Positions 59,381 through 62,673 of a stretch of DNA of 64,000 bases are shown in pieces. The notes under the pieces are model-generated. The model was not told the origin of the DNA. It did no database searches and saw only the letters and a list, made by a program, of their open reading frames with translations. Source of the stretch: Escherichia coli (lineage in GTDB: Bacteria > Pseudomonadota > Gammaproteobacteria > Enterobacterales > Enterobacteriaceae); assembly GCF_016026235.1 (NCBI RefSeq), contig NZ_CP065613.1. The stretch is one strand, 5' to 3'. A program made the position numbers and the translations under genes. Each line of letters begins with the position of its first letter. Position 1 is the stretch's first letter.

Positions 59381-60205
59381 TTAAAGCAGTAGCGGTAGGG
59401 TCGCGCTGGCAGTTTGCTGGCTCACATCGCTGTACTTATGATCCAGCGCAATCAGCGATGTGGTGAGTAACTCTACCAACAGCATAACTCCCACCTTGGC
59501 ATTCAGCGCGCCAGCGCTCAAGGGGCCTTCCGGTTTGGCCGCGACCAGTTGAATATCACTCAGCGAAGCTAACGGACTGCGCGGCGTATTACTCAGCGCC
59601 AGTACACGCACACCTTGCTTACGCGCTAGTTTTACGACATGCAGCAGATCGCGCGTGGATCCAGAACTGGAAATCGCCACCACGAACGTGTTTTTACTAA
59701 GTGTTGTGGCGTTCATGGCAGCACGATGCATATCGCTGAACAATTGTGCGGGTTTCCCCAGACGCAGGAGTTTGTAATGTAAATACTCCCCCAGAATAGC
59801 ACTGGCTGCTACGCCATAAATCTGTACTGACTGAGCCTGATGCAGTGCAAGCGTGGCTGCTTCCAGCAAGGTCCTATCGAGTAATTTTGCTGTGTCCTGT
59901 AGTGCTTGCACGGATTCATTGACCACATTGTCAATCTCATCACCGCCGTACTCTACAGACTGTACTTGTCGGAGATCGAGTGCAAGCGCCATTTTGAATT
60001 CGTTATAGCCCTTACACCCCAGCGTTCGGCACAGACGTGTGACGCTAGCCTCGCTGGTGCCGCTTTCACGCGCCAGTTCGGTAATCGTCAGGTAGACAAC
60101 TTTTGCCGGATCGCTAAGTACAAACTCTCCCAGCTTCTGTTGAGTTCGACTATATCCATCAACGCTCTGGCGCAATCTCAGCAGCAGGTTTTCATTTTCT
60201 GGCAT
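59381..60205 (-). CDS. RpiR/MurR-family transcriptional regulator (HTH plus SIS sugar-phosphate-binding domain)
   Basis: 274 aa ORF; N-terminal HTH (TITELARESGTSEASVTRLCRTLG) and SIS-like region (VAISSSGSTRD); divergent from the PTS gene. Confidence 0.75.
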   Translation of the reverse strand: MPENENLLLRLRQSVDGYSRTQQKLGEFVLSDPAKVVYLTITELARESGTSEASVTRLCRTLGCKGYNEFKMALALDLRQVQSVEYGGDEIDNVVNESVQALQDTAKLLDRTLLEAATLALHQAQSVQIYGVAASAILGEYLHYKLLRLGKPAQLFSDMHRAAMNATTLSKNTFVVAISSSGSTRDLLHVVKLARKQGVRVLALSNTPRSPLASLSDIQLVAAKPEGPLSAGALNAKVGVMLLVELLTTSLIALDHKYSDVSQQTASATLPLLL

Positions 60206-60370
60206 GCAAAATCCTTAATGCGTTTCTCTGCCGATAGTGTGGCGGAAAGTAGGGGAGAGATGCCAGTCATTTTAAAAAAGTATGATCGGTGTCTTGGTTT
60301 TTGATGGTAATTTTCATTTTTAAAATTAGTTATGGTAAAAATTTTTATCAATAATCGGGGAGATGAAAAA

Positions 60371-61927
60371 ATGATGCAAATATTTAGCGGCGCTTCGTCA
60401 GGCGCATGGTTTGAAAAAGCGCAGCGGTTCGGCAAATCGTTCATGCTGCCGATTGCGGTATTGCCCGCAGCGGGGTTGTTGTTGGGGATTGGTGGGGCTC
60501 TGTCGAATCCCAATACGTTGACGGCCTACCCATTCTTGAATGTCGACTGGCTGCAGGCAATCTTCACAATCATGACCAGCGCAGGTTCTATTGTGTTTGC
60601 CAACCTGTCGGTACTCTTTGCGGTCGGCGTCGCCGTGGGGCTGGCGAAATCGGATAAAGGCACTGCCGGGCTTGCGGCATTGCTAGCGTTTCTGGTGATG
60701 AATGCTACCATCAACGCCTTATTAACGCTAAATGGAACGTTGGCGCACAAGAACCCCGGTTCAGTTGGCCAGGGGATGACGCTTGGTATTCAGACACTGG
60801 AAACTGGTGTGTTTGGTGGGGTGGTGATTGGTCTCGTCACCTGCACGTTACATAGCCGTTTCAATAAAGTCTCACTACCTCAGTTTCTCGGTTTTTTTAG
60901 TGGTTCTCGTTTTGTACCCATTATCAGCTCCCTTGCCGCGATAGTAGTGGGTGCGGTTATGACGGTGGTGTGGCCGCATTTCCAGAAACTCATTTTTGGA
61001 CTGGGCGGCCTGGTGGATGCGACGGGCTATCTGGGGACGCTGTTGTACGGCTTCATCCTGCGTATGCTTGGTCCACTGGGTTTACACCATATCTTTTATT
61101 TGCCGTTCTGGACGACGGCGCTGGGCGGCAGTGAAATCGTCAACGGCCAGTTGGTTGAAGGTACGCAGCGGATTTTCTTTGCCCAACTTGCCGATCCGAA
61201 TACGCAGCAGTTCTACGCGGGTACCGCTCGCTTTATGTCCGGGCGCTTTATCACCATGATGTTTGGCCTGCTTGGCGCATGTCTGGCAATGTACCATACG
61301 GCAAAGCCGGAGAATAGAAAGGTTGTCGCCGGACTACTTTTGTCGGCAGCCTTGACCTCTTTCCTGACGGGAATCACTGAGCCTGTTGAGTTCTCCTTCC
61401 TGTTTGTCGCGCCCGTATTATACGTAATTCACGCCTTCTTCGATGGTCTGGCGTTTATGGTCGCCCATATTTTACATATCACTATTGGGCAAACCTTTTC
61501 GGGCGGGCTTATCGATTTCCTTCTCTTCGGCGTGTTGCAGGGGGAATCTAAAACAAACTGGATGTATGTCCCCATAGTGGGAATACCGTGGTTCTTCCTT
61601 TACTACTTCACTTTCCGCTATTTGATTAACCGCTTTGGCTGGCTGACGCCGGGTCGTGAGAACGTAACCCTGGTTGAATCCGGCCAGCCTCAGAGTGAAC
61701 GCGCAGCGGCAGTCATTGCCGGGCTGGGAGGCAAAGAGAATCTGGAAGAGGTGGACTGTTGCGCCACGCGCCTGCGCGTGACGGTTAAAGAGAGCAGTAA
61801 GGTAGATGAAGCTGCGCTGAAAGTGACCGGAGCGCGTGGCGTGATTATTCGCGGCAACGGCGTTCAGGTGATTTATGGCCCTCATGTCACCATCATTAAA
61901 AACGAAGTCGAAGAGATTTTATCGTAA
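60371..61927 (+). CDS. PTS system EIICB component, glucose/N-acetylglucosamine superfamily (substrate unknown)
   Basis: About 518 aa from ATG at 60371 (gggag RBS 8 nt upstream); multi-TM EIIC domain followed by C-terminal EIIB with the phosphorylatable cysteine motif [10 protein letters not shown]. Confidence 0.8.
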
Positions 61928-62616
61928 TGAAAACTGTACTGGATTCCCTGAAAGGTAAATTAATCGTCTCCTGTCAGGCTCTGGAAAATGAGCCTCTACA
62001 TAGTCCGTTTATTATGTCACGTATGGCGCTGGCGGCAGCACAAGGTGGTGCTGCAGGTATCCGTGCCAACAGCGTGGCGGATATTAGTGCTATCAAAGAG
62101 ATTGTCTCCCTTCCGATGATAGGGATTATCAAACGCGATTACCCTGGCAGTGAGGTGTTTATCACGGCCACTCTCCGGGAAGTGGATGAGTTGATGACCG
62201 TTGAGCCGGAAATTATTGCCCTGGATGCTACTGCGCGCCCGCGCCCTGGTGGTCAGACGCTGGAAGAACTGGTCACGCAGATCCGCGCTCGCTACCCGTC
62301 CGTACTTCTGATGGCAGATATAGCAACAGTAGAAGAGGCGGTGACAGCTGAACGTCTGGGTTTTGACTGTGTGGGCACTACGCTCTACGGCTATACCGCA
62401 GAAACTGCCAGGCATGTGCTGGCGGAAAATGACTGTGGATTCTTACGTGAGGTCCTGGCAGCGGTCAGCGTTCCGGTTGTGGCGGAAGGGAACGTCGATA
62501 CCCCGGAACGTGCCGCACGTTGCCTAACATTAGGCGCTCATACCGTGGTGGTTGGGGGGGCAATCACTCGTCCGCAGCAGATAACGACACGCTTTATCGC
62601 GGCGATCGCCTCGTAA
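61927..62616 (+). CDS. N-acetylmannosamine-6-phosphate 2-epimerase (NanE-family paralogue)
   Basis: 229 aa ORF; ATG overlaps the PTS stop (TAATG); NanE-like motifs (LIVSCQAL...[10 protein letters not shown]...VGTTLYGYT...VVAEGN); not identical to the canonical E. coli NanE as I remember it. Confidence 0.75.
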
Positions 62617-62643
62617 AGCACCGATGGGGTATGATACTTTGGT

Positions 62644-62673
62644 GGGGATAAGCGATAATTATCGCTTATCCCC
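62644..62673. terminator. perfect 30-bp palindrome (probable bidirectional terminator or operator) after the epimerase gene
   Basis: ggggataagcgat-aatt-atcgcttatcccc, 13-bp perfect stems around a 4-nt loop. Confidence 0.5.

Follow-up and report, generated by a model that had tools for sequence, protein, structure and literature searches.

Introduction

In Escherichia coli, N-acetylmannosamine (ManNAc) normally enters the cell through ManXYZ, in a route that needs the epimerase NanE. ManNAc-6-phosphate (ManNAc-6P) is converted to N-acetylglucosamine-6-phosphate (GlcNAc-6P), which is passed on to NagA and NagB. In Vibrio vulnificus, the RpiR-type regulator NanR (VvNanR) binds ManNAc-6P, was crystallised with it (4IVN) and sits at two neighbouring sites between divergent genes. 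Here we describe a module of three genes in a stretch of 64,000 nucleotides of E. coli DNA (contig NZ_CP065613.1, assembly GCF_016026235.1; the whole stretch is called the window below). The genes encode an RpiR-type regulator, a phosphotransferase system (PTS) permease and a NanE, and are followed by a long perfect palindrome. We propose that the module is probably a self-regulated, horizontally acquired ManNAc cassette, and that the palindrome is the orphaned promoter and 5' untranslated region (5'UTR) of queE.

Several related systems provide a basis for comparison. The sites of RpiR-family regulators are near-palindromes of ~18 bp, and MurR and VvNanR each use two adjacent sites; one site of Streptococcus pneumoniae NanR (SpNanR) lies downstream of an operon. 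Some RpiR-type nan regulators, SpNanR and Lmo2795 of Listeria among them, are activators. In the NanE of Staphylococcus aureus (SaNanE), six residues (Q11, R40, K63, D124, E180 and R208) were found by mutagenesis to be important. A nanE located apart from nanATK has been described in Citrobacter freundii, Enterobacter, Cronobacter and Pantoea, with no mention of PTS and RpiR partners. In the literature that we searched we found no experimental study of the PTS-nanE module of E. coli, Citrobacter or Cronobacter, although one may exist. The module is uncharacterised, while the kinds of its components (NanR-type RpiR regulator, Glc-family PTS and NanE) are known.

Results

The three genes and their control region

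The regulator gene lies on the minus strand and is divergent from the plus-strand gene of the PTS enzyme IICB (EIICB). The nanE gene comes next and overlaps the PTS gene, the PTS stop and the nanE start sharing one base (TAATG at 61925-61929). Open reading frames (ORFs) and Pfam/NCBIfam domains confirmed these three gene calls and the stop/start overlap, all of which had been made in an earlier reading of the sequence alone (the sequence-only reading). The features of the module and of the region that follows it are:

59381-60205, minus strand: RpiR/MurR-family regulator, 274 aa, HTH_6 and SIS domains
60206-60370: divergent control region, between the regulator and PTS genes
60371-61927, plus strand: PTS EIICB, 518 aa
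61927-62616, plus strand: nanE, 229 aa
62617-62687, plus strand: former nanE-queE intergenic region, a remnant of the donor queE promoter/5'UTR as judged from alignments with the Citrobacter, Enterobacter and K-12 sequences upstream of queE and from a promoter-like match
62629-62691, plus strand: extended RNA hairpin, with a 12-bp outer stem (62629-62640 with 62680-62691) enclosing the palindrome
62643-62674: perfect 32-bp palindrome
62688-62741, plus strand: queE' pseudogene remnant (ATG CAG TAC CCG ATT AGC TAG, stop at 62706-62708)

The regulator contains an HTH_6 domain (PF01418, 68.7 bits, cutoff 28.3) and an SIS domain (PF01380, 70 bits, cutoff 25). Its top match among solved structures is VvNanR (4IVN), with an E value of 1.7e-69 and 46% identity over 270 aa; the runner-up has an E value of 3.5e-31. 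The SSSGST phosphate loop is kept in the alignment with VvNanR. None of the named RpiR equivalogs in NCBIfam (AlsR, HexR, MurR and RpiR-like PRK11337) scored above its cutoff, the best being AlsR with 128.5 against 400 bits and the rest far below. The regulator is predicted to be a NanR-type repressor that responds to ManNAc-6P.

NanE scores 234.8 bits with PF04131 (cutoff 27) and 317 bits with NF002231 (cutoff 189), and it is 62% identical to SaNanE (6VVA/1Y0E). Residues Q17, R46, K69, D131, E187 and R215 align with the six SaNanE residues listed above, and all six are identical. Both NanE signature motifs are present, xPxIGIxK[KR] as LPMIGIIKR and VG[SG]AxTR as VGGAITR. The prediction that the module NanE makes GlcNAc-6P from ManNAc-6P is strongly supported. 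Similarity to the canonical enterobacterial NanE is much lower, so that the E. coli copy is a second NanE from outside and not a recent paralogue.

The PTS start was placed at the ATG at 60371, which is preceded by a GGGGAG ribosome-binding site at 60357-60362, is the RefSeq start and is the only start conserved across genera. An upstream in-frame ATG at 60332, taken from a program-made list of ORFs, was rejected, since cross-genus conservation and RefSeq favour 60371. The protein contains an EIIC domain (PF02378, 303.6 bits, residues 21-359) and an EIIB domain (PF00367, 55.9 bits, residues 447-479). The phosphorylatable cysteine of EIIB lies in DCCATRLR (a C-x-T-R-L-R motif), and the translation also contains GLHH. 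TIGR00852 (292.8 bits, cutoff 291.1) places the permease in the Glc subfamily, and PtsG is its closest solved relative. It falls under every cutoff for a specific equivalog, with 585.2 against 591.8 bits for glucose (TIGR02002), 476.6 against 632.2 for MalX and 439.1 against 553.2 for the NagE type. The names of 120 homologues in the databases are all generic. Pfam detected no EIIA domain in the protein or elsewhere in the module, and the permease presumably draws its phosphate from the housekeeping EIIA-Glc (Crr).

A 702-aa PTS-NanE fusion protein attributed to Cichorium endivia is 88% identical to the PTS; it is almost certainly an enterobacterial contamination in which the overlapping stop/start was read through. 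In E. coli HCM-28C-2, from chicken meat, an IS21-like element (ISEc12) splits the PTS gene near its 5' end and leaves the regulator and nanE intact; this strain is a natural knockout of the transporter.

An alignment of 59 intergenic sequences revealed two strongly conserved boxes in the control region, box A (TGATGGTAATTTTCAT, 60302-60317) and box B (TATGGTAAAAATTTTTATCA, 60331-60350), the latter holding an 18-bp near-palindrome. The boxes share the pattern TG-TG-TAA...TTTTCA, lie ~30 bp apart and overlap promoter-like elements. Because RpiR-family sites are near-palindromes of this size, paired in MurR and VvNanR, we propose boxes A and B as candidate operators of the regulator. The sole other such site in the window, TGGTAAAAATATTTACCC at 29330-29347, is a near-palindrome two mismatches from box B; as the pattern is A/T-rich, this site may have arisen by chance. 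A good CRP-like sequence (AGTGAAAGCTATCACA) is found at the equivalent position of the control region in the Pantoea/Erwinia loci. The E. coli/Citrobacter version is weak (TATGATCGGTGTCTTG), and a CRP site in the E. coli control region is speculation.

Synteny and the substrate of the permease

A synteny scan with one genome per species yielded 80 loci with close relatives of the PTS. In 74-75 of them, spread over two phyla and mostly without nanA or nanK nearby, nanE lies directly downstream of the PTS orthologue. An orthologue of the divergent regulator is found upstream in 56 of the 80 loci, all in Enterobacterales, where protein identity is 94-97% for Citrobacter and 77-82% for Yersinia, Rahnella, Serratia and Pantoea. 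The PTS orthologues of Bacillales and Selenomonadales are ~70% identical, and those of Bacillales are followed by a nanE of ~60% identity. At the Firmicutes loci the pts-nanE pair is usually followed by an unrelated RpiR-family regulator (25-35% identity) and sometimes by an EIIA-Glc-like gene; neither nanA nor nanK was present at the Firmicutes loci that we examined. The tight adjacency of PTS and nanE across phyla, together with their translational coupling, argues that the product of the PTS is the NanE substrate, ManNAc-6P.

The homology and synteny searches of the three proteins, which the sequence-only reading had called for, identified a NanR-type regulator, a Glc-family EIICB and a NanE, the trio occurring in 56 species of Enterobacterales. 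The genes that mark a canonical nan operon (nanA, nanT, nanK and a GntR-type NanR) are absent from the module, which consists of the RpiR regulator, the PTS and nanE only and has IS (insertion sequence) fragments and pseudogenes as neighbours. That reading had suggested that an amino sugar or a sialic-acid-related substrate is taken up and converted by genes which do not belong to the canonical nan operon. The suggestion held and can be narrowed to ManNAc by the NanR-type regulator, the complete NanE and the conserved PTS-nanE pair. ManNAc appears to be the most likely substrate of the PTS, as the regulator is related to a ManNAc-6P-binding repressor, NanE is catalytically complete, and the PTS-nanE pair occurs across phyla without nanA, nanK or nanT.

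Several points weigh against this assignment. A glucose-like substrate of the PTS is compatible with its score just below the glucose-specific cutoff (585.2 against 591.8 bits). SP1684, a Glc-family PTS in the nan locus of S. pneumoniae, was assigned to glucosamine, and the PTS of the ManNAc operon of Listeria is dispensable for growth on ManNAc. ManNAc as the substrate of the present PTS is a prediction. Repression by the regulator is not certain, given the activators among RpiR-type nan regulators, and boxes A and B may simply be promoter elements.

The PTS could instead import another hexose or amino sugar (glucosamine, glucose, GlcNAc, mannosamine or N-glycolylmannosamine), with NanE mainly serving ManNAc-6P that comes from elsewhere, such as the breakdown of sialic acid by NanA/NanK. 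Such a division of labour would agree with the position of SP1684 beside the S. pneumoniae nanE and with the nearly attained glucose-specific score. It would also agree with work on Cronobacter, Citrobacter and Enterobacter in which the nanE at this separate location is taken to supply the NanE of sialic acid breakdown. Against it, PTS and nanE overlap at stop and start and stay adjacent at nearly all the scanned loci, mostly away from nanA and nanK, and the closest solved relative of the regulator senses ManNAc-6P. In addition, PtsG, NagE and ManXYZ already serve E. coli for other sugars. We consider this alternative unlikely.

Distribution in E. coli and origin of the cassette

The region is 100% identical in E. 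coli FDAARGOS_943 and ~99.9% identical in the chromosomes of ST131, SE15, O104:H4, O55:H7 and NCTC86. The module was found in 495 of 5426 complete E. coli genomes, in 468 of them with one place that spans 80% or more of the query. At least four E. coli alleles are known:

Window-type allele: ~300 genomes
EC6563 allele: 96% type, at another chromosomal site
pF344-1 allele: 93% type, on IncF plasmids from hens
fS149a allele: in a tRNA-Phe island

All three genes are intact in the four alleles. The dN/dS ratio across alleles is 0.04-0.17 overall, 0.07-0.17 for the regulator and 0.04-0.09 for the PTS. The three genes of the module are under purifying selection. These values bear on the possibility that the cassette is inert cargo, decaying in E. 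coli amid IS debris. IS1 and IS4 fragments and pseudogenes (queE' and yccS') do flank the module, and in one strain the PTS gene is split by the IS21-like element. Yet the ORFs have stayed intact in four diverged alleles with low dN/dS, and most of the query is retained in 468 genomes. We find it quite improbable that the cassette is inert.

The gene order in Citrobacter is pyrG-eno-(module)-queE. In the window, nanE is followed by a counterpart of the Citrobacter nanE-queE spacer and then by the beginning of queE, which is cut short by a premature TAG; homology to queE is lost near 62741. E. coli fS149a keeps 264 nt of queE. E. coli K-12 is without the module and carries a homologous sequence upstream of its own queE (GGATCTGCAATAATTAACAATTATCC). 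On the left, Citrobacter-like homology ends at 59343-59380, which the alignment identifies as a decayed remnant of the convergent terminator between eno and the regulator gene of the donor, with a terminator-like match at 59344-59356; the Citrobacter counterpart is AAAAACCCGCTTCGGCGGGTTTTTTT. These comparisons indicate that the cassette is a core eno-queE locus in Citrobacter/Enterobacter-like bacteria and that the E. coli copy came from a Citrobacter-like donor. The fragment captured by E. coli measures ~3.4 kb and runs from the eno terminator to approximately queE codon 18; it lies beside IS debris, in tRNA-linked islands and on one IncF plasmid.

The palindrome downstream of nanE

The sequence-only reading reported a perfect 30-bp palindrome (GGGGATAAGCGATAATTATCGCTTATCCCC) at 62644-62673. 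The sequence is present at exactly these coordinates, and only its length needs correction, since perfect pairing spans 32 bp (TGGGG...CCCCA, 62643-62674). The palindrome is unique in the window, where none of 100 shuffles gave a match with three or fewer mismatches, and no copies of it or of its half-site beyond chance were found elsewhere in the window or in the control region. We rejected a repeated element, as the palindrome occupies a single locus per genome; BLAST routinely gives a second place per record, for which the simplest explanation is a match of the palindrome to its own other strand.

An invariant core, ATCTGCGATAAT, is conserved across ~40 species and reads as an extended -10 promoter (TG-n-GATAAT). 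A promoter scan called ATGATA-17-GATAAT at the palindrome, with the -10 GATAAT at 62654-62659. Thus, the element belongs to the promoter/leader of queE and not to the sugar module. In its ancestral form it is a quasi-palindrome of 30 bp whose arms are mismatched at three bases (12/15), GGGGAT(CTG)CGATAA and TTATCG(TTT)ATCCCC. This form is present in E. coli fS149a and in all sampled Citrobacter, one of which has an extra central mismatch. In three of the four E. coli alleles pairing was improved to perfect or near-perfect by different changes:

Window allele: left arm CT to AA and right arm T to C, giving AAG/CTT; the extended -10 TG is destroyed
EC6563 allele: the same AAG/CTT and, in addition, G to A with a matching C to T
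pF344 allele: five right-arm bases rewritten, TTTAT to CAGAG, as the exact complement of the left arm, including the left-arm A to C

The ancestral extended -10 TG is replaced by AG in the window. The outer stem gained pairs through two or three transitions, from GAGAACGC to GAGAGCGC, GAGAGTGC and GAGAGTGT, with G.U positions unchanged. The palindrome is invariant in the ~300 genomes with the window allele. Taken from these alignments, the palindrome is a derived form of the donor queE promoter/5'UTR that was perfected after the truncation of queE. The sequence-only reading had taken absence of the palindrome from orthologous loci as grounds against its interpretation; the perfect form is indeed absent there, and the orthologues carry only an imperfect version.

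The same reading had also considered the palindrome unusually long for a simple terminator and a possible site for a regulator, such as the RpiR regulator of the module or another dimeric protein. Perfect dyad symmetry with an A/T-rich centre, the ~18-bp near-palindromic sites of the RpiR family and the downstream SpNanR site would agree with a binding site. However, the half-site is missing from 60206-60370, boxes A and B differ from the palindrome in sequence and half-site spacing, and loci with a 93-96% identical regulator carry the imperfect form. K-12, which lacks the regulator, carries the homologous sequence ahead of queE. Furthermore, the arms vary among alleles and stay complementary, contrary to the behaviour of a protein recognition site. 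An operator function is unlikely for the regulator of the module, and we regard a binding site for any dimeric regulator as highly improbable. As for a terminator, a stem is present, but no T-run follows the palindrome (3' flank ATATTGAGAGTG) and no terminator-like call was made at 62643-62700; a canonical terminator was rejected because the T-run is absent.

The RNA fold of 62617-62700 has an energy of -40.3 kcal/mol (z = -7.9), compared with -22.2 kcal/mol (z = -0.6) for its Citrobacter equivalent; neither the Citrobacter nor the K-12 version folds more stably than shuffles. The right arm of the hairpin covers the Shine-Dalgarno sequence and AUG of queE'. No Rfam 15 family reached its gathering score, and the sole match over the hairpin was a spurious mir-965 (24.4 against 43 bits, E 0.11). 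Two points count against the structure. A covariation test on 13 sequences (alleles and species) was not significant, with 42-45 of 500 shuffles reaching the observed values, and the tally of pairing is biased by its use of a structure defined on the derived sequence. Because the pair count is not significant, the evidence is limited to a derived, lineage-specific perfecting in the E. coli alleles and does not extend to a conserved structure.

How the palindrome was perfected may be considered in terms of mutation and of selection. Quasi-palindrome correction by template switching is a known mutational mechanism. In pF344 the changes resemble the outcome of one templated strand switch: several bases, clustered in one arm, were altered so that this arm exactly complements the other. 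The window allele differs from such a correction in that its changes fall on both arms and the G.U-compatible positions of the outer stem are unchanged; this pattern, with wobble tolerated, would fit selection at the RNA level at least as well.

On the selective account, the perfected palindrome would be a functional 3' stem-loop under selection, which terminates or stabilises the pts-nanE mRNA and keeps the promoter, ribosome-binding site and AUG of the orphan queE silent. The stable window fold compared with the shuffle-like ancestral sequences would agree with this, as would the independent gain of pairing in three alleles. Of the six substitutions that separate an fS149a-like form from the window across the 84-nt region, five form new pairs or strengthen existing ones, and G.U positions were left alone. 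The outer stem covers the queE' start, the extended -10 TG is lost, and the palindrome does not vary in ~300 genomes. But with alleles 99.9% identical, invariance carries little information, the stem has no T-run behind it, the shuffle controls did not reach significance and the counting of pair changes carries the bias noted above. The one-arm rewrite of pF344 resembles a single templated mutation and not stepwise selection. We therefore find this account rather doubtful. The derivation of the palindrome from the queE promoter/5'UTR stands beside either cause: we suggest that templated (strand-switch) mutation perfected it, possibly aided by selection for a stable pts-nanE 3' stem-loop, the two being inseparable in these data.

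Flanking regions

The region lies on an island beside a tRNA-Leu gene (leuX), between IS1/IS4 debris and other sugar loci. The IS debris that the sequence-only reading had placed left of the module was recognised as an IS1 pseudogene and the end of an IS4-family element:

58335-59032: IS1 pseudogene, left of the module (RefSeq annotation of the identical locus)
59049 to ~59360: end fragment of an IS4-family element, at the left junction of the acquired segment and outside the module (RefSeq annotation of the identical locus)

Window positions 59300 to ~59360 match the ends of IS4-family transposases on Salmonella, Klebsiella and Yersinia plasmids, and in the pF344-1 plasmid copy an IS4-family fragment is found on the right side of the module instead. 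This hints that the cassette was mobilised by an IS4-family element.

On the right, queE' is followed by a pseudogene fragment of a YccS/YhfK-family transporter (yccS', 62794-63094 in RefSeq copies), which contains a perfect 12-nt inverted repeat (ACCTTCACCAGC / GCTGGTGAAGGT, 25-nt spacer, 62848-62896). The longer queE' of fS149a (264 nt) joins this downstream sequence at a point further along it; the junctions thus vary among alleles.

Between the leuX integrase and the module (~54351-58293), RefSeq annotates a frameshifted 2.5-kb RNA-directed DNA polymerase. In the identical strain, it also lists a 229-aa hypothetical ORF at 56845-57534, which overlaps the end of this polymerase, and a phage polarity suppression (Psu-like) gene at 57736-58293. 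This stretch looks like the remains of a P4-like satellite or of a reverse-transcriptase defence locus. To the right of the window, the island carries an ascorbate-type PTS (IIA, IIB and IIC) regulated by LacI and a DeoR-regulated cluster of ribokinase, fucP-like permease and aldose epimerase. With two more sugar loci on the same island, the module is one of several accessory sugar loci clustered at leuX.

Discussion

We propose the following pathway. The Glc-family EIICB, with phosphate from Crr, would import ManNAc as ManNAc-6P. The translationally coupled NanE would epimerise it to GlcNAc-6P, which the core enzymes NagA and NagB would take to fructose-6-phosphate. The divergent NanR-type RpiR regulator would keep the operon off, probably through the two boxes that overlap the PTS promoter, until binding of ManNAc-6P to its SIS domain releases it.

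Such a cassette would allow ManNAc, an amino sugar released from mucus, to be scavenged inducibly and independently of the GntR-type NanR. Work by Plumbridge and Vimr in 1999 is said to have found the canonical nanE poorly expressed in the absence of sialic acid. A self-induced cassette would lift this limit. If the assignment to ManNAc is correct, ~9% of complete E. coli genomes, including pandemic ST131 and the O104:H4 outbreak lineage, would have a second route for a host-mucus amino sugar. This route would be independently regulated, whereas the canonical one has only ManXYZ and a NanE induced by sialic acid. It would be a modest, testable candidate for a fitness factor in gut colonisation, and a function would be provided for a PTS labelled 'maltose/glucose-specific' in databases. 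The palindrome, in turn, carries a warning: even a perfect palindrome that catches the eye may be a side effect of gene capture and mutation and not a designed site.

A broader reading joins these parts. The module would represent a widespread, dedicated ManNAc-PTS pathway common to Firmicutes and Enterobacterales, acquired by ST131, O104:H4, O55:H7 and NCTC86, all successful human-associated lineages, from Citrobacter-like gut neighbours. The orphaned queE promoter would represent a natural conversion of a quasi-palindrome to a long perfect hairpin in multiple alleles after loss of function, templated or selected. Taken as a whole, this is plausible rather than probable.

The components can be compared with known systems one by one. 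Like VvNanR, the regulator combines HTH_6 and SIS, is alignable with it over the full length at 46% identity and has the SSSGST loop. The two conserved boxes ~30 bp apart in a divergent intergenic region recall the paired VvNanR sites. An entire sialic acid cluster (transporter, nanA, nanEK and nagA) is under VvNanR, whereas the present regulator would control only the PTS and nanE. The NanE resembles the enzymes of S. aureus and Clostridium perfringens (6VVA/1Y0E and 4UTT), sharing with SaNanE 62% identity, all six catalytic or binding residues and both motifs. In contrast, the NanE of the canonical nanATEK operon (Salmonella 3Q58/3IGS) is much less similar (E ~1e-37).

The pairing of a PTS with nanE also has precedents. 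In S. pneumoniae, a Glc-family EIIBC (SP1684, 'nanP') is found beside nanE under an RpiR-family regulator. There, the genes sit in a large sialic acid regulon and SP1684 is the permease assigned to glucosamine. In the Listeria lmo2795-nanE operon, growth on ManNAc needs NanE and the RpiR regulator of the same operon; the PTS is not required and the regulator is an activator. The Bacillales loci are alike in having PTS orthologues of ~70% identity beside nanE, while the regulators of the Firmicutes loci are only 25-35% identical to the present one.

The canonical E. coli route, through ManXYZ or through NanT-NanA-NanK and then NanE under a GntR-type NanR, leads to the same chemical end point via NagA/NagB. 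It differs from the module in its Man-type instead of Glc-type permease, its GntR instead of RpiR regulator and its other lineage of NanE, and the module is without nanA, nanT and nanK. A further counterpart is the separately located nanE of C. freundii, Enterobacter, Cronobacter and Pantoea, which is part of this very module on the chromosome and encodes a NanE of the same 229-aa lineage; the E. coli module differs in being borne on an island and truncated at queE.

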